This document shows, in pieces, positions 4,193 to 16,879 of a stretch of 57,959 nt of DNA. The notes beneath the pieces were generated by a model that was not told where the DNA came from, made no database searches, and saw nothing but the letters and a program-made list of their open reading frames with translations. Made by a program: the position numbers and the translations under genes. Positions within the stretch are counted from its first letter, which is position 1. Each line of letters starts with the position of its first letter. The stretch comes from an uncultured Trueperaceae bacterium (GTDB lineage: Bacteria > Deinococcota > Deinococci > Deinococcales > Trueperaceae). The stretch covers positions 1 to 57,959 of the forward strand of contig CAVSGP010000001.1 of NCBI GenBank assembly GCA_963727505.1, read 5' to 3'.

Positions 4193-5209
4193 TCAGGTGT
4201 GGACGACAGCTTTCAGTGCCTTGTCCTCATGCCGGGCCAGCGACGCGAAGGCTTCCGCTGAAGCGTTCAAGTGGAACCGGTGGGACACGAGTGGCATCAA
4301 ACGGACGCGCTGGTCCTGAACGAGTCGGATCCCGCGACCATAGACGTCCCCCATGCGATGCGAGAATTTGACGGTAAGCCCCTTGTTCCGTGCCACGGAC
4401 GCTGTTAGAGCGATGTCGTCGCCTTCAGGGATGCCTACGCCGATGACTCTCCCCCCGATGCGCGCCGTGCGCACCGCTGCCATGAGGCCATCCGGAGCGT
4501 CCGTAGCTTCCAGGACCACGTCGGTGCCCCTTCCGCCTGTTACCTCTGAGATCCCTTCATGGCCCGTGTGGACGCTGTCAGCCCCGGCATCCAGTGCGGC
4601 CTCGCGGCGGTGCGGTAGCGGCTCGGCGACGTGTACCTCGGCCGCTCCGCAGACGCGCGCGACCTGGACAAGGAGGAGGCCGATCGGGCCTGCGCCGACA
4701 ACTCCAACCGTCGCGAGAGGACGGACACGTGCCAGGTCCAGCGCGTGAACAGCAACGCCCAAGGGTTCCAAGAGCGCGACTTCATCGTCGTGGAAGGAGG
4801 CGGGCACGCGTACGAGCATCGCGGGCGGAGCGACCAGGTACTCTCTCAGGGCGCCGTCCCATTGGGGGCTACCCAGGAACTTCGTATGTGCGCAGAGGTT
4901 CGGAAAGCCTTTCCTGCATGACTCGCAGCGTCCGCATGGGAGCGCGGGATCCACCGCCACGACTTCGCCGACTTCGAAGCCGAAGTCTGGCGCGCGCTCG
5001 TCAACGACCTCCGCTGCGATCTCGTGTCCAGGGATCATGGGCGTGTCGATGGTTGCCTGACCGATCCGCCCTTCACGGTAGTAGTGGAGATCGCTACCGC
5101 AGATTCCGACCGACCGCATACGTAGGAGCAGACCATCACCCTCGACGGATGGACGTGCACGCTCCTCGACCCTTACGTCCCCTGCACCGTAGATTGCTGC
5201 TGCTCGCAT
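4193..5209 (-). CDS. Zn-dependent alcohol/polyol dehydrogenase (sorbitol dehydrogenase-like)
   Basis: GICGSD, GHE, structural Zn motif CGRCESCRKGFPNLC, Rossmann GAGPIG; AGGAG RBS. Confidence 0.92.
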   Translation of the reverse strand: MRAAAIYGAGDVRVEERARPSVEGDGLLLRMRSVGICGSDLHYYREGRIGQATIDTPMIPGHEIAAEVVDERAPDFGFEVGEVVAVDPALPCGRCESCRKGFPNLCAHTKFLGSPQWDGALREYLVAPPAMLVRVPASFHDDEVALLEPLGVAVHALDLARVRPLATVGVVGAGPIGLLLVQVARVCGAAEVHVAEPLPHRREAALDAGADSVHTGHEGISEVTGGRGTDVVLEATDAPDGLMAAVRTARIGGRVIGVGIPEGDDIALTASVARNKGLTVKFSHRMGDVYGRGIRLVQDQRVRLMPLVSHRFHLNASAEAFASLARHEDKALKAVVHT

Positions 5210-5546
5210 CGTCTGCTCCTAGTCGCTGGACTCCAGTCCATCAAGGGTACATGCCTTGGAACACCTGAGATCATGCGACACTTCTGCGCCCCAACGAGGG
5301 TAACCCCGTGCCACTAGGTGAATCGTGGCGTACCGCGAGGCTGTGCGAAGGCGGTGCATCGTCGCGACTCCGATGCTGGCTCAGCATCTGCTGTGGGTCG
5401 TGTTGCGAGTTGTGTTGCCAACTCACCCCAACTCAGCCGATCTCAGCCCCAACCCTGCAAACACCACAGTGGCCGTAGTAGGCTCAGGGACGATGATCCG
5501 CGAACTCGGCAGAACTCAACAGAACAGCCGCTGAACGCTGCCGAGT

Positions 5547-9484: not shown

Positions 9485-10087
9485 ATGCGCATCTTCGTGG
9501 CCGGCGCGAGCGGCGTGATCGGCTCGCGGCTCGTCCCGCTGCTTGTGAAGGCAGGCCACGCTGTGGCCGGGATGACCCGCTCGAGCGCGAAGATGCAGGC
9601 GCTGCGGGCAATGGGCGCGACGCCCATCCTGTGCGACGTCTACGACGCCCCAGCATTGAAGACGGCGGTGGCAACGTACCGTCCCGACGCGGTCATCCAC
9701 CAGCTCACCGACTTGCCGGACGAAGCGGCGCTCATCCCGGCACGCTCCGAGGCCAACGACCGCATGCGCCGCGAGGGCACGGCCAACCTCATCGCGGCCG
9801 CCCGCGCCGCAGGGGCGCAGCGTCTTCTAGCGCAGAGCGTCGCCTGGCCCCTGCCCGGCGCTGGCGCCGCCGCCGTTGAGGAGCTGGAGCGGGCCGTCCT
9901 CGCCGTCGGCGGCGTCGTGCTGCGCTACGGCCGCCTCCACGGCCCCGGCACCTACTACGACGGGGGCTTGCCGCCCCTTCCCAGGATCCACGTGGAGGAG
10001 GCCGCCCGTCGCACCGTGGCCGCGCTGGATGCACCCTCGGGCGTGATCACCGTGACCGAGGATCGGCCACCAGCAGGCACGCGCTGA
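9485..10087 (+). CDS. NAD-dependent epimerase/dehydratase family protein
   Basis: MRIFVAGASGVIG Rossmann motif, VIHQLTDL, LRYGRLHGPG. Confidence 0.88.
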   Translation: MRIFVAGASGVIGSRLVPLLVKAGHAVAGMTRSSAKMQALRAMGATPILCDVYDAPALKTAVATYRPDAVIHQLTDLPDEAALIPARSEANDRMRREGTANLIAAARAAGAQRLLAQSVAWPLPGAGAAAVEELERAVLAVGGVVLRYGRLHGPGTYYDGGLPPLPRIHVEEAARRTVAALDAPSGVITVTEDRPPAGTR

Positions 10088-10329
10088 GCGCCGTGGCGCG
10101 CCGATCAACGCCGTCGAGCACTCGGGCGACCGCGCAACAAGCGAGGCGGATCCACGTGGTCGTTGCAACGATGGCTTCCTCGAGAAGATCGCCTGGGGGT
10201 TCGGCCTTCGGCGGATGCGGATGTTGATGCGCGTGCGACGCTGCCCATGAGGCATGGAACCCCTCGAAGACCCCGATCGGGCGCCGGCCGCGATGACGGC
10301 GAGACGCCGCGAACTTCGGTCGGCCGGCA

Positions 10330-10372
10330 CGTCAAACGCTTGACGGCATGGCGACGCCGCATCGGGCACGAT
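10330..10372 (+). promoter_or_regulatory. Crp/Fnr-type site CGTCA-N6-TGACG plus -10 element (class II geometry)
   Basis: CGTCAAACGCTTGACG at 10330-10345, centre 10337.5, 29.5 nt upstream of CACGAT (10367-10372). Confidence 0.7.
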
Positions 10373-10427
10373 AGCGGCATATGCGAGACACCTACGACGT
10401 TCCCCACGCCCGCAACCGCAGGCAGCC

Positions 10428-11819
10428 ATGAGCGACCGTTACGACGCCATCGTCATCGGGGCCGGCCAGGGCGGCGGCCCCCTCGCCGGCAAACTCGCCA
10501 AGGCCGGGCAGCGCGTCGCCCTCGTCGAGCGCCAGCACGCCGGCGGTACCTGCGTCAACGAGGGTTGCACCCCGACCAAGACCATGATCGCCAGCGCCCG
10601 CGTCGCCCACGTCGCACGGCGCGCCGCAGAATACGGCGTCCGCACCGGCGACGGCGGCGTCACCGTCGACCTGGAACGCGTGCGCCAACGCAAACGCGAC
10701 ATCGTGGAATCGTTCCGTGACGGCTCCGAGGCCAGCCTCCGGAAGATCGAGACGCTCGACCTCCTCATGGGCACCGCCCGCTTCACCGCACCCCACGAGA
10801 TCCGCGTCGACCTCAACGACGGCGGGCAGCGCGACCTGACCGCCCCCACCATCGTCATCGACGTCGGCACGCGCCCCACCGTCCCACCTATCGACGGCCT
10901 CGGCGACGTCCCGTACCACACGAACGCCACCCTCATGGAGCTCGACGAGGTCCCCGATCACCTCCTGGTCCTCGGCGGCGGCTACGTCGGCGTCGAGTTC
11001 GGCCAGATGTTCCGCCGCTTCGGGAGCCGCGTCACCCTCGTCGACCGCGGCCCCCAACTCCTCGCCCACGAGGACGCCGACGTCGCAGACGCCCTCACGG
11101 GCATCCTCCGCGACGAAGGCATCGACGTGTGGCTGAACGCCGAAACGCGGTCGGTGGGAGCCACCGACAGCGGACTGGACCTCGAAGCCGCCGTCGACGG
11201 CGAGCGCCGCAGCGTCCGAGGGAGCCATCTGCTCGTCGCCACCGGCCGCCGCCCCAACACCGACGACCTCGGGCTCGAGCACACCGGCATCACCCTCACC
11301 GAGGGTGGTCACATCCGCGTCGACGATCGCCTCCGCACCGGCGTCGACGGCATCTATGCCCTCGGCGACGTCACCGGTGGACCCGCCTTCACCCACACCT
11401 CGTACGACGACTACCGCATCCTCGCCTCCGACCTCCTCGGCGACGGCGGCTACCGCGGCCGCAGCGAACGGCTCCTCGCCTACACCGTCTACAGCGACCC
11501 CCAGCTCGGGCGCGTCGGCCTCACCGAACGACAGGCGCGCGCCACCGGACGCGACGTGCGGGTAGCCACCCTCCCCATGAGCCACGTGGCCCGCGCCCTC
11601 GAGACCGACGAGACGCGCGGACTCATGAAGGCCATCGTCGACGCCGACTCGGCCCGCATCCTCGGCGCAGCCGTCCTCGGATCGGAAGGCGGCGAGCTCG
11701 CGGCCGCCCTGCAGATCGCCATGCTCGGCGACCTTCCCTACACCGCCCTGCGGGATGCGCCCCTCGCCCACCCCACCTACGCCGAGTCCCTGAACAACCT
11801 CTTCGCCCGCGTCCCGTGA
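10428..11819 (+). CDS. Flavoprotein disulfide reductase, RclA/YkgC-like (not a true MerA)
   Basis: GAGQGG FAD motif, redox motif GGTCVNEGCTPTK, GGGYVGVE, SYDDYRIL, C-terminal HPTYAESLNNLF; no C-terminal Cys-Cys pair and no NmerA domain. Confidence 0.9.
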   Translation: MSDRYDAIVIGAGQGGGPLAGKLAKAGQRVALVERQHAGGTCVNEGCTPTKTMIASARVAHVARRAAEYGVRTGDGGVTVDLERVRQRKRDIVESFRDGSEASLRKIETLDLLMGTARFTAPHEIRVDLNDGGQRDLTAPTIVIDVGTRPTVPPIDGLGDVPYHTNATLMELDEVPDHLLVLGGGYVGVEFGQMFRRFGSRVTLVDRGPQLLAHEDADVADALTGILRDEGIDVWLNAETRSVGATDSGLDLEAAVDGERRSVRGSHLLVATGRRPNTDDLGLEHTGITLTEGGHIRVDDRLRTGVDGIYALGDVTGGPAFTHTSYDDYRILASDLLGDGGYRGRSERLLAYTVYSDPQLGRVGLTERQARATGRDVRVATLPMSHVARALETDETRGLMKAIVDADSARILGAAVLGSEGGELAAALQIAMLGDLPYTALRDAPLAHPTYAESLNNLFARVP

Positions 11820-12037
11820 AGCCGGAAGCGCGACGGTCGTGGCCCGAGGGAACCCGCACACCGCGTTCGTGGCTGGCGTCGGCGGGGCTGTCGATCGCCG
11901 TCGTAGCGGTGATGGTGGCCGCGAGCGCCTTGCTGAATCCTCTTCTAGGCCGCGTCGTTCACTGGCGCCGCATCGACATCGGTGCGCCCGTCGCCACACT
12001 CGTCTTCGCGCTGGCGTTCCGACGCCGCTGGCTCTGA
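11816..12037 (+). CDS. Small membrane protein (2 TM)
   Basis: GTGA overlap with the reductase stop; two hydrophobic segments; ends FRRRWL. Confidence 0.55.
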   Translation: MKPEARRSWPEGTRTPRSWLASAGLSIAVVAVMVAASALLNPLLGRVVHWRRIDIGAPVATLVFALAFRRRWL

Positions 12038-12077
12038 GGCGACGCAGCTGCGCTCGCCCCGTTCGGAAGGGTCGTCC

Positions 12078-12434
12078 ATGAACAAGATCGCCGTCCTCGT
12101 CCTCGCCGACACCGAGACCCACGGAGACCTCGGAAGGGTCGTCAACGCCCTGGAAGTCGCCAGGGAGTTCAAGGAATCCGGAGACCAGGTCGCCATCCTC
12201 TTCGACGGGGCCGGCACCCGGTGGATCGCCGAGCTCTCGGACCCCGAGCACAAGCGGCACGCGCTGTTCGAATCGCTGCGAGAGGTCATCCACGGCGCCT
12301 GCGCCTTCTGCTCCGCCGCCTTCGGGGTGAAGGAGGCCGTCGTCGCGGCGAACGTCACCCTTCTTACCGAGTTCGAGCAGCACCCCAGCATCCGCTCGCT
12401 CGTCAACGAGGGCTACCAGGTCATCACGTTCTGA
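12078..12434 (+). CDS. DsrE family protein
   Basis: GRVVNAL...ILFDGAGTRW...GACAFCSAAFG (CxxC). Confidence 0.85.
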   Translation: MNKIAVLVLADTETHGDLGRVVNALEVAREFKESGDQVAILFDGAGTRWIAELSDPEHKRHALFESLREVIHGACAFCSAAFGVKEAVVAANVTLLTEFEQHPSIRSLVNEGYQVITF

Positions 12435-12511
12435 TCGCCGGGGCTGACCGCCGGGGCCGGTCGGCAGGGCGCCACGGAGCTCCATGCCACAGCCCTCGGG
12501 AGGAGTGTCGA

Positions 12512-12634
12512 GCGCCGGATACCACCGTCACCTTCGAGAACCGGCGGGGCGAGCGCCTGAGCGCCCGCCTCGCGCTGCCCGTCGATCGAGCGCCGGCAGC
12601 GTACGCGCTGTTCGCGCGCTGCTTCCCCTGCTCA
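12512..12634 (+). pseudogene. N-terminal remnant of an alpha/beta-hydrolase-OsmC fusion protein
   Basis: VTFENRRGERLSARLALPVDRAPAAYALFARCFPCS resembles the family N-terminus (AYALFAHCFTCS). GGAGGA RBS lies 7 nt before a GCG that may be a mutated start; similarity ends at the Crp gene stop. Confidence 0.65.
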
Positions 12635-13327
12635 GCCGTCGGCCGTCGAGTCCGCCAGCGACGCCAGCGCGGCAGCGTGCACCCGGTAGGTCCCCCGGCT
12701 CCCCTCCACCAGGCCGCGCTCACGCAGCTCCCCCATGGCCATCGTCACGGACACCCGCGTCGCCGACACCATCGAGGCGATCTCCTCGTGCTTCAGGCTC
12801 GATGCCACCGTGACCCAGCCTTCGTCGTCCGCTTCGCCGAATCGCTCGGCCACGCCCAGCAGCACCTTCGCCACCCGCACCATCACCGGGTCGAAGCCGC
12901 TCGCCAGTTGCGCGCGGCAATCGAACAGGTGCCCGGACAGGATCTCGCACACCCCCAGCACGAAGCCCGGCGCCTTCAACGACATCTGCAAGAACTGATC
13001 GCGGGAGATCGGACAGGTCACGACGTCCGTGAGGGCCACCGCCTCCGCGCGATACGCCGCTCCCTCCGCCACGAAGGCGTCGCCGATGAAGTCGTCGGGC
13101 CCGCAGAGGGCCAGGATCCGCTCCTCCCCCTCCGGCGTCGCCACCGACACCTTCACGCGTCCCCTGGCGATCACGTGCATCTCGTTCGCCGGGTCCCCCG
13201 CCCGGAACACCGCGTCCCCCCGACCGTACGGGCGCTCCGGACACACCCGCATGAACACGTCCATGTCCTGACGGGCGATGACTTCCGAGAAGCGGGTATT
13301 GCGAACGACGAACGGACGATCGCTCAT
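12632..13327 (-). CDS. Crp/Fnr family transcriptional regulator
   Basis: cNMP-like domain (VFRAGDPA, GRVKV, DFIGD) and C-terminal HTH LKHEEIASMVSATRVSVTMAMGELRERGLV; five Cys. Confidence 0.93.
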   Translation of the reverse strand: MSDRPFVVRNTRFSEVIARQDMDVFMRVCPERPYGRGDAVFRAGDPANEMHVIARGRVKVSVATPEGEERILALCGPDDFIGDAFVAEGAAYRAEAVALTDVVTCPISRDQFLQMSLKAPGFVLGVCEILSGHLFDCRAQLASGFDPVMVRVAKVLLGVAERFGEADDEGWVTVASSLKHEEIASMVSATRVSVTMAMGELRERGLVEGSRGTYRVHAAALASLADSTADG

Positions 13328-13490
13328 GATGGCCCGATCATAGCGTCCGGCACAGCTCCCGCCCGGATTCCGGCCGGCCCTGACCTGGGGCCCCCGACCT
13401 GCGGCGCCCCGGCCCGCGGCCACGCCCGTTCACGAGGAGCTCACGAGAAGCAGGGAGCGGCGGCCGACCGGACCCGCACCCCGCACACGC

Positions 13491-13533
13491 GGTCAACTGC
13501 CGAACAGACGCGCTCGGCGGATGCGCCTACGAT
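13491..13533 (+). promoter_or_regulatory. Degenerate Crp/Fnr-type site plus -10 element
   Basis: GGTCA-ACTGCC-GAACA at 13491-13506, centre 13498.5, 29.5 nt upstream of TACGAT (13528-13533). Confidence 0.5.
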
Positions 13534-13554
13534 CATGGCGGACCCGGAGGCGAC

Positions 13555-14001
13555 ATGGCATCGAGAGGCTTGCTATTCACGTTCCTGATCGGCGCCCTGG
13601 CGCTCGCGCCCATCGCCGCCGCCGCCACGCCCAGGAGCGGCACGCCCAGGAGCGGCACGCCCAGGAGTACCGTCGGCGAGAACGTTCCGGTGCCGCCGCT
13701 GCCCTTCCCCAGCCACAACGACCCCTCCCTTTGCGGCATCCCCCAACCGATGGGCAAGGGCGTCACAGGCGTGCTCGACGGGCACTACCGCGGCGCGCTG
13801 GTCGAGCCGACCGTCTACCTCTACGACAGCCACCTGCGCAAGGCCGTCACTGGCGAGGCGCCGAGCGGAACGCCCGTCCGCGTGCTCTACTACCAGAGCA
13901 ACCCCACGCTGGACTACTACATGGTTCGCGTGAAGACCTCGACCGGTAGCTTCGAAGGCTGGGTGCCCGCGCCGTTCCTGCAGGGCGTGACAACCCCCTG
14001 A
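13555..14001 (+). CDS. Secreted hypothetical protein (possibly SH3-like C-terminus)
   Basis: Signal peptide, TPRSG repeats, HNDPSLCGIP, ends YMVRVK...EGWVPAPFL; GGAGG RBS. Confidence 0.75.
   Translation: MASRGLLFTFLIGALALAPIAAAATPRSGTPRSGTPRSTVGENVPVPPLPFPSHNDPSLCGIPQPMGKGVTGVLDGHYRGALVEPTVYLYDSHLRKAVTGEAPSGTPVRVLYYQSNPTLDYYMVRVKTSTGSFEGWVPAPFLQGVTTP
13626..13667 (+). repeat. 15-bp tandem repeat, about 2.8 copies (TPRSG)
   Basis: CACGCCCAGGAGCGG units. Confidence 0.9.
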
Positions 14002-14074
14002 GCAGGCTTCGGCGTTGCGGAACGCGCTCCGCCGCGGCCGGCCAGCCGGCCTCCTGCGCGAAGCGCACCAACGG

Positions 14075-14584
14075 CTAGACCGCGTTCGCCTCCGACGCCG
14101 GCCGCACCCGCCAGTCGATCGCCAACGCCACCTCCGCGGCCCGCAACAGGTTCGCCACCGGACAGCGTGCCTCCACGTTACGGATGAGCTGCTGTACCCG
14201 CCGCTCCGGCTCGTCGGTGAACAACTCGATCGCCAGGTCCACCGACTCGAAGTACGGCCTCACCCCCTTCACCCCCCGCGGCCCTCGCAGATCGATCACG
14301 CTCGACGCCGCGAAGTCCACTCCCGCGTACGCGAAGCGCATGGCCTGCGCCACCAAGTGGATGGTCGATCCCTTGCACCCCACCAGCGCCGCCACCACCG
14401 TCTCCAACGGCGTCTGCGCCGAATCCGCGCCATGCCGCTGCGGCGGCTCGTCCATGGCGAACGAGAACGACCGCACCGACACCTCCGTCCGCGCCCCGCC
14501 GCCGTTCACCCCCCGCACCCGGTGCACGTGTTCCTTCCGGCGCGACACGTCCGCGATGCTCGGCGGCAACAACTCCTCGCTCAT
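14075..14584 (-). CDS. OsmC/Ohr family protein
   Basis: DEP..HGADSAQTPLE..AALVGC and second Cys in EARCPVANLL. Confidence 0.88.
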   Translation of the reverse strand: MSEELLPPSIADVSRRKEHVHRVRGVNGGGARTEVSVRSFSFAMDEPPQRHGADSAQTPLETVVAALVGCKGSTIHLVAQAMRFAYAGVDFAASSVIDLRGPRGVKGVRPYFESVDLAIELFTDEPERRVQQLIRNVEARCPVANLLRAAEVALAIDWRVRPASEANAV

Positions 14585-14746
14585 CGACTCACCCTTCCAT
14601 CCTTCCACCGACCGGCCCGCACCGCGCACCTCACGCGTGGCGCCGCGAGCGATCGAGTGCTCAGCCCCGGCGCCGCCGATCCGCTGTCGAGATCGGCGGC
14701 GCAACATCCCATGCCCGGCTCCCTCGGAGCCGGACCCGGGAGACGC

Positions 14747-15457
14747 TCAATCGTCGCCCGGCACGGGCAGCAGCGGCACCCCCAGACCCCGCGCACGGCG
14801 CACGCCGAGGAACAACACCGTCCCGAACAGGATATGCGCAAGGTACACCGTGACCGCGAACTTCGCTCCCAGCGCCGCGCCGAAGAACCCCGCCCCCAAC
14901 GCCTTCGGCACCGGACTCACCAGGAACCCCGTCCCCACCAGCAGCGCGTACGGGAACGCCAGCCACGGCTGCCTCCGCCCGAACACCAGCAGGTAGATCA
15001 GCACGAAGGTCACGCCGTTGTACACGTGATCGGCCCACCCCAGCAGGTTCGACGCCAGGTCCGGGCCTACCATGATCCGGTTCGTCAAGAGCACCCCCAT
15101 CAGCATCGGCATCGACCCCGGCATGGCGTGGAACGCCCGGAACCCTACGATGCGCACCAGCTCCAGGCCCGCCGTCGCCACCATCCCCACGCCGACGCCC
15201 ACCAGCAACGTGCGCCACAACCCGTGCCACCTCACCGCCGCCGCCACGACGCCGATCACGAAGAGCACGCCGATGGCGGGGAGCGTCACCTCCACGGCCA
15301 GGCGCGAGAGCGAGGCGTACCCCGCCTCGCTCACCGCGAACAGCACCGCGCCGGATAACCCGGCCGCGATGACGGCCACGACCCTCGCGGCACGCTCCGC
15401 GACCAGGCTGACCGACCGACGATGGGAAGACGTCAGAGTACGCCCTGCACGGTCCAT
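14747..15457 (-). CDS. Hypothetical polytopic membrane protein
   Basis: About 6 TM; GWADHVYNG and AHILFG His motifs; GGAGG RBS. Confidence 0.75.
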   Translation of the reverse strand: MDRAGRTLTSSHRRSVSLVAERAARVVAVIAAGLSGAVLFAVSEAGYASLSRLAVEVTLPAIGVLFVIGVVAAAVRWHGLWRTLLVGVGVGMVATAGLELVRIVGFRAFHAMPGSMPMLMGVLLTNRIMVGPDLASNLLGWADHVYNGVTFVLIYLLVFGRRQPWLAFPYALLVGTGFLVSPVPKALGAGFFGAALGAKFAVTVYLAHILFGTVLFLGVRRARGLGVPLLPVPGDD

Positions 15458-15482
15458 GTCCGTCCCTCCCTCGTCCCTGACC

Positions 15483-15953
15483 TCACTGCGTCGCCTGCGA
15501 CAGGATCTTCGCGAACACCCCGTCCATCTTCGCGCCCGCCTTCGCCAGCTCCGGCGACACCCCCGCGAACAGCTCCGACGGCTTGAAGTACCCGATCTCC
15601 GTCTTGCCGGCCGCGTCCACCCAGACGTACATGCGCAGGGGGATCACGGCGCCCGCCGCGGCGTCCATCTCGAACAGCTTCTTGCCCGCGACGGGGTTGC
15701 CGATGAAGAACGACTCGGCGCCCTGCAGGTTCAGGCCCGTCGTCGACAACGCGCCCTTCTGGTTCAGATTGCCCAGCACCATCATCCCGTTCGACGCCAC
15801 CGCCTTCTTCAGGCTCGACACCGTCGCATCGAACGGCGCGCTCGAGGTGGCATGCAGGAACTGCGGACCGCTCTGCGCGGCAGCCGCGCCCATCATCGCC
15901 AGCAACACCAGAGCCACGACCACACCGCGGAACGAACCAACCATCTTGCGCAT
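15483..15953 (-). CDS. DUF302 domain protein with signal peptide
   Basis: FDATVSSLK...FIGNPVAG...AGAVIPLRMYVW...YFKPS; AAGGAG RBS. Confidence 0.85.
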   Translation of the reverse strand: MRKMVGSFRGVVVALVLLAMMGAAAAQSGPQFLHATSSAPFDATVSSLKKAVASNGMMVLGNLNQKGALSTTGLNLQGAESFFIGNPVAGKKLFEMDAAAGAVIPLRMYVWVDAAGKTEIGYFKPSELFAGVSPELAKAGAKMDGVFAKILSQATQ

Positions 15954-16025
15954 AGGAGTCTCCTTCGTAAGAAGCGTTCGGCCGCAGTGGACGCGGCCCA
16001 CCGGCGCCCTCGCGCCGACCCCGCC

Positions 16026-16068
16026 ACCTTGCCGCAGACGCGCGCGCCGTTCGGTCAAACGTTTGACG
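16026..16068 (-). promoter_or_regulatory. Crp/Fnr-type site plus -10 element (class II geometry)
   Basis: Perfect palindrome GTCAAACGTTTGAC at 16054-16067, centre 16060.5, 29.5 nt from minus-strand CAAGGT (16031-16026). Confidence 0.72.
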
Positions 16069-16210
16069 CGGCGCGGAACGGCGAGCGACGTTGCGACAGG
16101 GGCCACCCCGCGGAGCCGAGCGTCGTCGCGCTCCCGGCGCGGTCGGTCCCGTAGGCGTCATGATGGTGTCGGCCGGCAGGCTCCGGCCGCATTGGAGGTC
16201 CGACGCGTCC

Positions 16211-16879
16211 ATGCCCAAAGTTGACCTGACAGCGATCCTCGAGCGTGATGGCGTCGTCCCCATCTTCAGCCGTGCCGACCGGCAGGAGGTGGAACGGGTG
16301 GCCGACGCGGTTGGCGTCGCCGGGGGAAGAGTCCTCGAGTTCACCAACCGCCAGGACGACGCCGTCGCGATCTTCGCGCACCTCGCCGGCTATCTTCAGG
16401 AGCACCACCCCGAGGTGGCGCTCGGCGCGGGGACGGTCTTCGACGCAGCCACGGCGATCGAGTTCATCGCCCGCGGAGCAGACTTCGTCGTCAGCCCCGC
16501 GTACGACGACGCGGTGCGCCAGGCATGCGTGGAGCGGGGCGTGCCCTATATCCCGGGGTGCTTCACCGCCACCGAAGTGCGCCGCGCGCACGCGGCCGGC
16601 TGCAGCCTCATCAAGCTCTTCCCGGCCGCGCCTGTCGGAACGGGCTACCTGAGAGCGTTGCGCTCCGTGTTCCCGGCGGTGCGCTTCGTGCCGACCGGCG
16701 GGATCACGGCGGACCCGAAGACCGTCGGCAAGTGGCTGGCCGCCGGCGCCACCGCGGTCGGGCTGGGTTCGGACCTGATCGCGCCTGCGGGCGCGTCCCA
16801 GCGGGAGCTGGACCGCGTCCCGGAGGTCCTGCGTCCTCTGCTATCGCTGCGAGCCGACGGGGCGACGCCGGAGCGCTGA
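16211..16879 (+). CDS. eda: KDPG/KHG aldolase
   Basis: LEFTNR, GAGTV, FVVSP, IKLFPA, FVPTGG. Confidence 0.88.
   Translation: MPKVDLTAILERDGVVPIFSRADRQEVERVADAVGVAGGRVLEFTNRQDDAVAIFAHLAGYLQEHHPEVALGAGTVFDAATAIEFIARGADFVVSPAYDDAVRQACVERGVPYIPGCFTATEVRRAHAAGCSLIKLFPAAPVGTGYLRALRSVFPAVRFVPTGGITADPKTVGKWLAAGATAVGLGSDLIAPAGASQRELDRVPEVLRPLLSLRADGATPER

Follow-up and report, generated by a model that had tools for sequence, protein, structure and literature searches.

Which promoters does a Crp/Fnr-family regulator control when its gene lies amid redox-related units in an environmental member of the Deinococcota, and what might it respond to? We asked this of a locus in a 57,959-nucleotide (nt) stretch of DNA from an uncultured Trueperaceae bacterium (contig CAVSGP010000001.1 of assembly GCA_963727505.1), the whole of which is called the window hereafter. 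The source organisms named for close homologues agree with a placement in the Trueperaceae/Deinococcales. The regulator gene lies between a unit headed by an RclA-like flavoprotein disulfide reductase and an opposite-strand unit headed by a secreted DUF302 protein, and a gene for another secreted protein stands beside it. The regulator represents an uncharacterised Crp/Fnr clade in the Deinococcota; its recognition helix is NtcA-like, its probable box is GTCAA-N4-TTGAC, and its putative regulon is small, nearly self-contained and related to redox functions. The design is an already known one and adds no new type of mechanism. To our knowledge, almost no regulons have been described in the Deinococcota outside Deinococcus and Thermus, and for this part of the phylum the locus would supply a clean cis/trans pair: a site defined to the base, a fixed promoter architecture, few targets and little genomic background.

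The box and its promoters

Three box-like sequences were located upstream of genes in the window: CGTCAAACGCTTGACG at 10330-10345, upstream of the reductase unit; GGTCAAACGTTTGACG at 16053-16068, upstream of the opposite-strand DUF302 unit; and GGTCAACTGCCGAACA at 13491-13506, upstream of the secreted-protein gene. The informative core of the box was a 14-base-pair (bp) palindrome, GTCAA-N4-TTGAC, which can also be written GTC-N8-GAC. Exact copies of this core occurred twice in the window, at 10331 and 16054; 100 dinucleotide-preserving shuffles of the window averaged 0.01 copies and never reached two. With up to one mismatch allowed, the window count stayed at two (the same sites) with a shuffle mean of 0.61, which is a weaker test because 13 of the 100 shuffles also reached two. 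Genome-wide (3.26 Mb, 70% G+C), the assembly held five exact copies, and a pattern search for the FNR-type order, TTGAC-N4-GTCAA, gave no occurrence in the same 3.26-Mb genome. The looser form proposed for a genome scan in the first-pass annotation, a model's reading of the letters made before this analysis, was SGTCA-N6-TGACS; it returned 54 matches and is thus not specific.

Conservation was examined in a genus sample comprising the source genome and nine others (G001-G009). A regulator orthologue with 79-98% identity was present in five of the nine (G003, G005, G006, G008 and G009), and orthologues of the reductase and the DUF302 protein were found in the same five genomes, that is, in six of ten with the source. 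All three genes were undetected in G001, G002, G004 and G007, which are 70, 92, 81 and 96% complete, respectively. This all-or-none presence marks the cluster as an accessory module within the genus. Gene order and orientation differed among the five related clusters. Despite this rearrangement, an exact palindrome was kept 87.5-91.5 nt before the reductase ATG, and likewise 105-108 nt before the DUF302 ATG in all six genomes with the cluster. Specifically, a single perfect palindrome in G006 lies between the divergent reductase and DUF302 genes and is common to both, and in G005 there are two palindromes in the divergent spacer and a third, with one mismatch, before a detached unit of the small membrane protein and DsrE-like genes. 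The central CG and the flanking bases of the palindrome were also conserved in the alignment of the genus sites; a position weight matrix built from these sites over-fitted the central ACGT and had few matches in other genera.

Searching the whole genomes of the five relatives gave 12 distinct exact sites, nine of them in intergenic regions of the cluster and three inside open reading frames (ORFs) with at least 0.90 G+C at third codon positions. The reversed pattern, used as a control, gave 1, 0, 0, 0 and 0 matches in the five genomes, and in G006 and G009 the cluster sites were the only exact sites genome-wide. The pairing of site and gene was repeated in 12 metagenome contigs with 78-88%-identical regulators. 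The first-pass annotation had predicted that the motif would be conserved beside homologues of the regulator and that the regulon would be compact, and both expectations are borne out by the sites kept in rearranged clusters and metagenome contigs and by the nine cluster sites among the 12.

Each of the three sites in the window is followed by a hexamer resembling a -10 element, CACGAT (10367), TACGAT (13528) or CAAGGT (minus strand, 16031 down to 16026), which begins 29.5 nt from the site centre. The site sequences, the hexamers and this spacing had all been reported in the first-pass annotation and were reproduced here. When the hexamer is taken as positions -12 to -7, the centre of the site falls at -41.5. 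We tabulated 18 such promoters: seven of reductase genes, seven of DUF302 genes, one of the secreted protein, one of the DsrE unit and two of YjeF_N-domain genes on metagenome contigs. An xAxxxT hexamer lay exactly 22 nt past the site in 17 of the 18 and at 23 nt in the remaining one, the detached DsrE unit of G005, which has TATCGT at that distance from its own one-mismatch site. The bases of the 22-nt spacer varied among genomes with zero insertions or deletions, so the distance from site to -10, earlier claimed to be fixed, is kept while the spacer sequence drifts.

The hexamers were consistent within each class of promoter. Reductase promoters had CACGAT or CACAAT at 22 nt in seven of seven cases, with an exact or one-mismatch site about 90 nt before the ATG in every one. 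The DUF302 promoters had CAAGGT (three), CAGGGT (three) or CTACGT (one) at the same distance, and the two YjeF_N genes (contigs L136 and L139) had GACCAT or CACGAT 22 nt past the box. The secreted-protein gene was preceded by TACGAT, TAGCAT or TACCAT 22-23 nt past the site in all five genomes that carry it; in the same five, the block GGTCA(A/G)C(T/G)G(C/A)(C/A)GAACAGA was kept at site 3 within intergenic DNA that has otherwise diverged. A sigma-70 scan of 10100-16300, which accepts gaps of 16-18 nt, found no -35/-10 pair.

The regulator gene appears to be arranged differently from its putative targets. Its 5' block, CGCTATGATCG...CATG, was kept across the genus genomes, and no ribosome-binding site precedes the gene (13325-13345, minus strand), which suggests a leaderless or near-leaderless mRNA. 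Given its own strong TATGAT hexamer, the lack of a box and an almost leaderless mRNA, the regulator is probably made constitutively and switched on post-translationally.

Related arrangements were found beyond the genus: of 27 genomes from the family's other genera, 14 encode regulators of 50-61% identity. In G012 (55%-identical regulator), the exact sequence GTCAAAGGCTTGAC lay in the divergent spacer, flanked on each side by TAnnnT at 23 nt, and the reductase orthologue (59% identity) was preceded by GTCAA-AGAA-ACGAC and, after 22 nt, AAAGAT. The divergent spacer of the regulator held a one-mismatch site in G036 and two-mismatch sites, GTCAA-N4-TGTAC, in G029 and G010; hexamers on the promoter side were TAGCCT (G029) and TAAAGT (G010) at 22 nt and TAGGCT at 21 nt (G036). 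In G018, a DsrE orthologue adjoins the regulator and has a one-mismatch site. Halves of the GTA type were seen upstream of the orthologues in G029, G010 and G036, as was GTACAG-N3-ACGAC in two G028 loci, all under patterns defined post hoc. The pattern GT[CA][AC]A-N4-T[TG][GT]AC occurred four times in 15 loci (167.6 kb), each time within 260 nt upstream of a regulator gene, a family-level enrichment that is inflated because the patterns were written after the sites were seen. G019 offers a natural control, of a single case: its reductase is 63% identical, a regulator orthologue is absent, and the 4.4-kb locus holds no site even with two mismatches allowed.

The regulator and its predicted reading of DNA

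The regulator scored above cut-off with two Pfam models, cNMP_binding at 72.7 bits and HTH_Crp_2 at 45.1 bits, which places it in the Crp/Fnr superfamily. An AlphaFold2 model (predicted local distance difference test score 88.1) had the beta-roll, long dimerisation helix and C-terminal winged helix-turn-helix expected of the family. The top structures in Foldseek were Mycobacterium tuberculosis CRP, GlxR and NtcA, with template modelling (TM) scores of 0.76-0.84; M. tuberculosis CRP and GlxR share the fold and were the best matches in both sequence and structure (expect value (E) 4e-21, TM about 0.8). Named subfamily models (CRP, Fnr, NtcA, PtrA, LdrP and FixK) all scored far under their cut-offs. 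For CRP, NF008732 gave 46 bits against a cut-off of 266, and the Arg that contacts cyclic AMP (cAMP) in M. tuberculosis CRP aligned to Tyr92, invariant in 58 relatives, so that the protein does not classify as a CRP. An FNR assignment fails likewise, with NF008365 at 26.1 bits against 228 and no N-terminal Cys cluster. The regulator is not an orthologue of NtcA either, given 48.2 bits against 244.95 for TIGR03697 and about 24% identity in the fold alignment.

The recognition helix reads S-A-T-R-V-S-V-T-M in the translation, and its A-T-R-V-S-V-T-M aligns to A-S-R-E-T-V-N-K of M. tuberculosis CRP, in agreement with the earlier observation of T-R-V-S-V in place of S-R-E-T-V. Glu181 of CRP is thus replaced by Val and the Arg185 position by Met. 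Among 58 relatives with 48-89% identity, T190, R191 and V192 were invariant and S193 was nearly so. An Arg180/Glu181/Arg185 triad sets specificity in the CRP family, and Val181 loses discrimination at position 7, according to sections of PMC2677863; the triad is incomplete in our regulator, unlike in CRP, and the changes to Val and Met together fit a half-site of GTCA rather than GTGA. In the parts of PMC11850224 used here, NtcA is described as reading its box via Arg186, Val187, Thr190 and Arg191, and it is chiefly the Val that sets this reading apart from that of CRP. The regulator carries the same series as R191-V192-x-x-T195-M196 (Arg-Val-x-x-Thr-Met), alike to NtcA in Arg186, Val187 and Thr190, with Ser for Thr in other genera, whereas Met takes the place of the fourth contact, Arg191.

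The box is in keeping with this helix, being close to the NtcA box GTA-N8-TAC. Canonical NtcA promoters have that box centred at about -41.5 and a -10 element, with no -35 element (PMC3898017), and the promoters here share the general form GT(A/C)-N8-(G/T)AC, a predicted centre near -41.5 and a -10-like hexamer without a -35. The third base of the box is C in this genus and not A. In the structural model, the regulator also resembles NtcA in an acidic beta4-beta5 turn and a predicted extra C-terminal helix. The turn reads P-E-G-E-E-R, with G67 and E69 invariant, and in NtcA the hairpin glutamates touch sigma region 4 (PMC11850224, same sections). As judged by sequence comparison, DNA recognition is NtcA-like though the protein is not an NtcA orthologue; further differences are predicted targets that point to redox repair and not to nitrogen assimilation, and three invariant cysteines.

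The label of a non-canonical site, given in the first-pass annotation, therefore holds against CRP and FNR but not against NtcA, to whose box the site is close. As at class II promoters of Escherichia coli CRP, a dimer would sit on a 16-bp inverted repeat with a 6-bp centre, in what looks like class II geometry; the putative regulon differs from that of CRP in being local and not global. The FNR and Dnr box, TTGAT/TTGAC-N4-ATCAA/GTCAA, has the opposite order of half-sites. Literature searches returned no description of this box or clade, their GTCAA/TTGAC matches concerning FNR/Dnr boxes of the opposite order, and a search for Truepera with Crp had no match carrying these terms in title or abstract. 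In a motif survey of the superfamily (PMC3590769), a word search covering the main text did not find "Deinococcus", "Thermus", "GTCA" or "TGAC". The putative pairing of Arg-Val...Met with GTCAA offers a data point for the residue-to-base code of the Crp/Fnr family.

The regulator has also been called Cys-rich, a term that here stands for five cysteines in 231 amino acids (aa); three of them, Cys29, Cys105 and Cys137, do not vary among the 58 relatives. Cys29 is part of V-C-P and Cys105 of T-C-P, and the long helix has Cys137 at its end. Since Cys29 is the sole cysteine before beta1, there is no N-terminal cluster motif of the FNR type. Within the shared family, Cys105 is near the position of FNR Cys122, a placement that is approximate owing to a coordinate offset in the Fnr profile. 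FLP of Lactobacillus casei and CprK are family precedents for disulfide control of DNA binding, and the Foldseek list included PDB entries titled "oxidized/reduced CprK".

A more distant relative was seen in G054, a genome of the same order (41% identity; L022, 1471-2163). It has both Cys-Pro motifs and an S-T-R-V-T helix, is without the third cysteine, and is flanked by a TerC-like membrane gene and a phosphoribosyltransferase/cupin pair, as identified by eye from ORF translations.

Proposed mechanism and rival explanations

On balance, we favour reading the cluster as an accessory module of one Trueperaceae genus with its own Crp/Fnr regulator, which would activate from the box in class II fashion in answer to a thiol-oxidant signal. 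A dimer of the regulator would bind GTCAA-N4-TTGAC as an NtcA-like GTC-N8-GAC box. The bound box would overlap the missing -35 region, centred about 41.5 nt before the start, in promoters that have a weak -10 only, and the regulator would activate transcription from there as a class II activator. Its targets would be the RclA-like reductase with the small membrane protein and the DsrE-like CxxC protein; the secreted DUF302 protein with the membrane protein and perhaps OsmC; and, via a weaker, half-degenerate site, the secreted SH3-like protein. The regulator would be made constitutively and its activity switched on after translation, the signal being a thiol-reactive oxidant or disulfide stress sensed via Cys29, Cys105 and Cys137.

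Our confidence differs among these steps. Binding of the palindrome by the regulator is likely. Activation from about -41.5 is somewhat less secure and still reasonably probable, since the -10 elements are weak and lack a -35 partner, the phasing is strict and the beta4-beta5 turn is acidic. That a thiol-reactive oxidant or disulfide stress is the signal, sensed by the invariant cysteines, is put forward tentatively; the predicted targets (an RclA-like reductase, OsmC with both cysteines and a DsrE-like CxxC protein, joined on contigs of metagenome relatives by a YjeF_N-domain protein) fit a thiol/oxidant theme.

The reductase gives this theme its closest parallel. In NCBIfam it matched a PRK06370-type model (552 bits) and, as third-best match, RclA (410.6 bits), both under cut-off; its best solved relative was 6kgy (E 4.9e-99), which we take to be the structure of E. 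coli RclA. MerA carries a C-terminal Cys pair, and the reductase ends in ...NNLFARVP without such a pair and scored 343.9 bits against a cut-off of 454.45 for TIGR02053, so it does not qualify as a MerA. RclA of E. coli is an oxidant-induced enzyme that reduces hypothiocyanous acid (HOSCN); it requires Cys43/Cys48, and RclR is its inducer (PMC9335216). The reductase of the window has the equivalent pair, Cys42/Cys47, and as in E. coli RclR-rclABC a dedicated regulator (here a putative activator) stands beside an RclA-type reductase and small envelope proteins. In contrast to that system, the regulator is of the Crp/Fnr family and not AraC, the partners are DsrE-like, DUF302 and DUF6789-like proteins, and the host is an environmental member of the Deinococcota. 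With 410.6 bits against the RclA cut-off of 740, the reductase is only a candidate for an RclA-type substrate.

Several points weigh against the activator and oxidant reading. The case for an oxidant signal consists solely of cysteine conservation and target annotations, and a site at -41.5 could equally suit a repressor. The DUF302 "-10" hexamers (CAAGGT, CAGGGT and CTACGT) are very weak, site 3 retains one half-site only, and the DsrE site of G018 has no xAxxxT at 22-23 nt. Co-occurrence does not separate the regulator from its targets, because the module is present or absent as a whole. Several of the 12 metagenome contigs probably duplicate genus genomes, leaving about 8-10 independent clusters, all of them closely related.

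Among the alternatives that keep the same regulator on the same box, the nearest competitor concerns the signal, which could be a small metabolite in the beta-roll pocket (compare 2-oxoglutarate in NtcA) or could act through a metal or Fe-S cluster bound to the cysteines. The intact cNMP-binding fold, the NtcA-like helix and box, and the approximate match of Cys105 to FNR Cys122 would suit it, as would orthologues of other genera beside sdhCDAB and single exact sites near glutamate-synthase-like and glutamine-synthetase genes. However, the cAMP-contacting Arg is an invariant Tyr92, the named subfamily models stay far under their cut-offs, one cysteine before beta1 makes no FNR-like cluster, and a test on glnA failed (an exact site in one of 30), and we regard this version as rather unlikely. 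Repression is improbable in our estimation. A repressor would cover the -35 region and block RNA polymerase until a signal frees the promoter, and position alone cannot tell such occlusion from class II activation; the secreted-protein promoter, with its good -10 (TACGAT), might even function without an activator. Yet all three promoters lack a recognisable -35 (the sigma-70 scan gave none), the -10s of the reductase and DUF302 genes are weak in the manner of activator-dependent promoters, phasing at 22 nt in 17 of 18 promoters suits a fixed contact between protein and polymerase, and the acidic beta4-beta5 turn is conserved.

The palindrome could instead be the true operator of another factor encoded elsewhere, with the Crp gene a bystander or acting on other targets. 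The link between regulator and box comes from sequence, and regulator and targets are always lost together, which would permit this. Nevertheless, the site has the format of the Crp family, two inverted 5-bp half-sites within 14-16 bp and G-T/A-C where the conserved Arg and its neighbours read, and the change from Glu to Val predicts an altered position 7. In other genera, orthologues with 50-57% identity again have box-like sites in their divergent promoters (G012, G036, G029 and G010), while the G019 reductase has neither regulator nor site; the idea strikes us as quite improbable. Hardly credible is a reading without any dedicated regulator, in which TTGAC is a plain sigma-A -35 hexamer and the palindrome a pair of back-to-back promoters. 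TTGAC does supply five of the six bases of TTGACA, and one G006 palindrome lies between divergent genes. But TTGACN stands 21 nt from the -10-like hexamer, outside the 16-18 nt scan range; the palindrome remains intact even without a divergent neighbour, as at site 1 of the window, which has a co-directional gene upstream; and the central CG and flanks are conserved too.

Extending the favoured reading of a box-bound, thiol-responsive activator to the family as a whole is speculative, and we consider it possible but doubtful. The Trueperaceae regulators would then form an uncharacterised Crp/Fnr clade that joins an NtcA-type reading of DNA to a three-cysteine thiol switch and activates flavoprotein disulfide reductases and envelope thiol-redox genes across genera. 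Arg-Val-x-x-Thr/Ser would act on GT(C/A)-N8-(G/T)AC at -41.5; the switch would consist of two Cys-Pro motifs, which flank the beta-roll, and a third Cys at the dimerisation-helix hinge; and the targets would be the RclA-like reductase here and a DedA/VTT-Pyr_redox_2 operon or DUF3179/CcdA-like genes elsewhere. If true, the clade would be a non-homologous counterpart of oxidant sensors of the RclR/HypR type in an environmental, stress-tolerant phylum. In the window itself, an RclA-type reductase, a DsrE-like CxxC protein, a DUF302 protein and a DUF6789-like protein are tied into one putative co-regulated unit, which offers a lead to the function of poorly understood families.

Cluster genes, neighbouring loci and sites elsewhere

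Table 1. Boxes, promoter elements and genes of the regulator cluster, in window positions.
Feature	Position	Strand	Description
Site 1	10331..10344	.	Exact palindrome GTCAAACGCTTGAC, before the reductase operon
-10-like CACGAT	10367..10372	+	22 nt past site 1; centre about -41.5 if the start is near 10379
Class I flavoprotein disulfide reductase, RclA-like	10428..11819	+	Pfam Pyr_redox_2, Pyr_redox_dim; redox Cys42/Cys47 in GGTCVNEGC
Small membrane protein, 73 aa	11816..12037	+	ORF; overlaps the reductase stop codon
DsrE-like protein, 118 aa	12078..12434	+	C-A-F-C motif; Pfam DsrE 21.4 bits, just below the 22.7 cut-off
Crp/Fnr-family regulator, 231 aa	12632..13327	-	Pfam cNMP_binding and HTH_Crp_2; helix SATRVSVTM
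TATGAT -10 hexamer	13337..13342	-	9 nt before the regulator ATG; box-free upstream; putative promoter role
Site 3	13492..13505	.	Degenerate box GTCAACTGCCGAAC, left half-site alone intact
-10 hexamer TACGAT	13528..13533	+	22 nt past site 3
Secreted protein, 148 aa	13555..14001	+	Weak Pfam SH3_3, 21.8 bits, cut-off 27; signal-peptide-like N-terminus
OsmC-family protein	14075..14584	-	Pfam OsmC 52.2 bits; both family cysteines, Cys70 and Cys141
Membrane protein, 236 aa	14747..15457	-	Resembles DUF6789 in language-model features only
Secreted DUF302 protein, 156 aa	15483..15953	-	Pfam DUF302 44.5 bits; first gene of the minus-strand unit
DUF302 5' leader, about 70 nt	15954..16025	-	Two G+C-rich hairpins, then ribosome-binding site GAAGGAG
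Weak -10-like CAAGGT	16026..16031	-	22 nt past site 2
Site 2	16054..16067	.	Perfect palindrome GTCAAACGTTTGAC, before the DUF302 unit

The composition of the units was compared among related clusters (Table 1). Matches to the small membrane protein in tblastn adjoined the DsrE gene in G003, G005 and metagenome contig L138, and contig L139 had such a match with the DsrE gene undetected. The secreted-protein gene was present in five of the six genus clusters. The membrane protein, which had no Pfam match, was always encoded after DUF302, in six of six. The minus-strand unit had been described as DUF302, membrane and OsmC genes; the first two are always paired, but membership of OsmC is uncertain, as it is separated from the membrane gene by a 162-nt gap and tblastn for it was negative in the five same-genus clusters, despite its presence on some contigs. 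Specifically, contigs L135 and L138 have OsmC after the membrane gene, and L136 and L142 have it next to the SH3 gene. The L138 copy (5028-5303) looks truncated or internally deleted, since the window protein was matched only over residues 1-28 and, as a separate piece, 99-168.

The DUF302 leader was kept in six genomes, and RNAalifold gave 18 pairs, one of them with a compensatory change. A Rfam scan of 9800-16600 returned just three chance hits far below threshold and left the leader unmatched. The leader could be an attenuator or a stabilising leader.

A gene with a YjeF_N domain, absent from the window, stands behind the box in two metagenome contigs (L136 at 3224, exact; L139 at 8454, one mismatch). 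The YjeF_N family includes NAD(P)H-hydrate repair enzymes.

The regulators of other genera have a different neighbourhood. At loci L036-L046, they adjoin sdhC/D/A/B on one side, and on the other side a divergent operon has a CDP-alcohol phosphatidyltransferase gene followed by DedA/VTT, Pyr_redox_2 or both; this Pyr_redox_2 reductase is 28-31% identical to that of the window. M16 peptidases are often near. In G035 (L050), DUF3179 and then a DsbD/CcdA-like gene lie divergent from the regulator.

An NtcA-like nitrogen regulon was considered as a general reading and dropped. In five genomes of other genera there were 18 exact sites, of which 10 loci and the G012 regulator locus were examined, leaving out four G034 loci and three G012 sites; four of the 10 were intergenic. 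One lies in G012 (L094) before a histidine kinase and downstream of a glutamate-synthase gene, followed by N22-CATACT. Two are in G029: one (L084) between DUF3179 and a Rieske/Glu_synthase gene, with N22-TAAGGT before DUF3179, and one before small ORFs and a Glu/Gln-tRNA synthetase. The fourth is between two divergent glnA genes of G026 (L090). The DUF3179 gene of G029 and the histidine kinase of G012 are candidates with the expected architecture of site and hexamer. Among 30 upstream regions of glnA in the family, the exact site of G026 was the only one, and it has no -10 at the expected spacing, which led to the rejection. The glnA genes of G012 and G068 have one-mismatch sites about 260-300 nt upstream, and glnA of the source genome has no upstream site.

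Three exact copies of the core lie elsewhere in the source genome. One (C9:657898) is inside a coding frame. Another (C9:352527-352540) is at the 3' end of cinA, just upstream of recA; it lacks xAxxxT at 22-23 nt and probably arose by chance. The third (C6:231325-231338), with no exact counterpart in the five same-genus relatives, is near a contig end in a stretch of 55-60% G+C, beside glycosyltransferase fragments. Read on the minus strand, this site is followed at 23 nt by AATCGT and then by a possible ORF of 58 codons.

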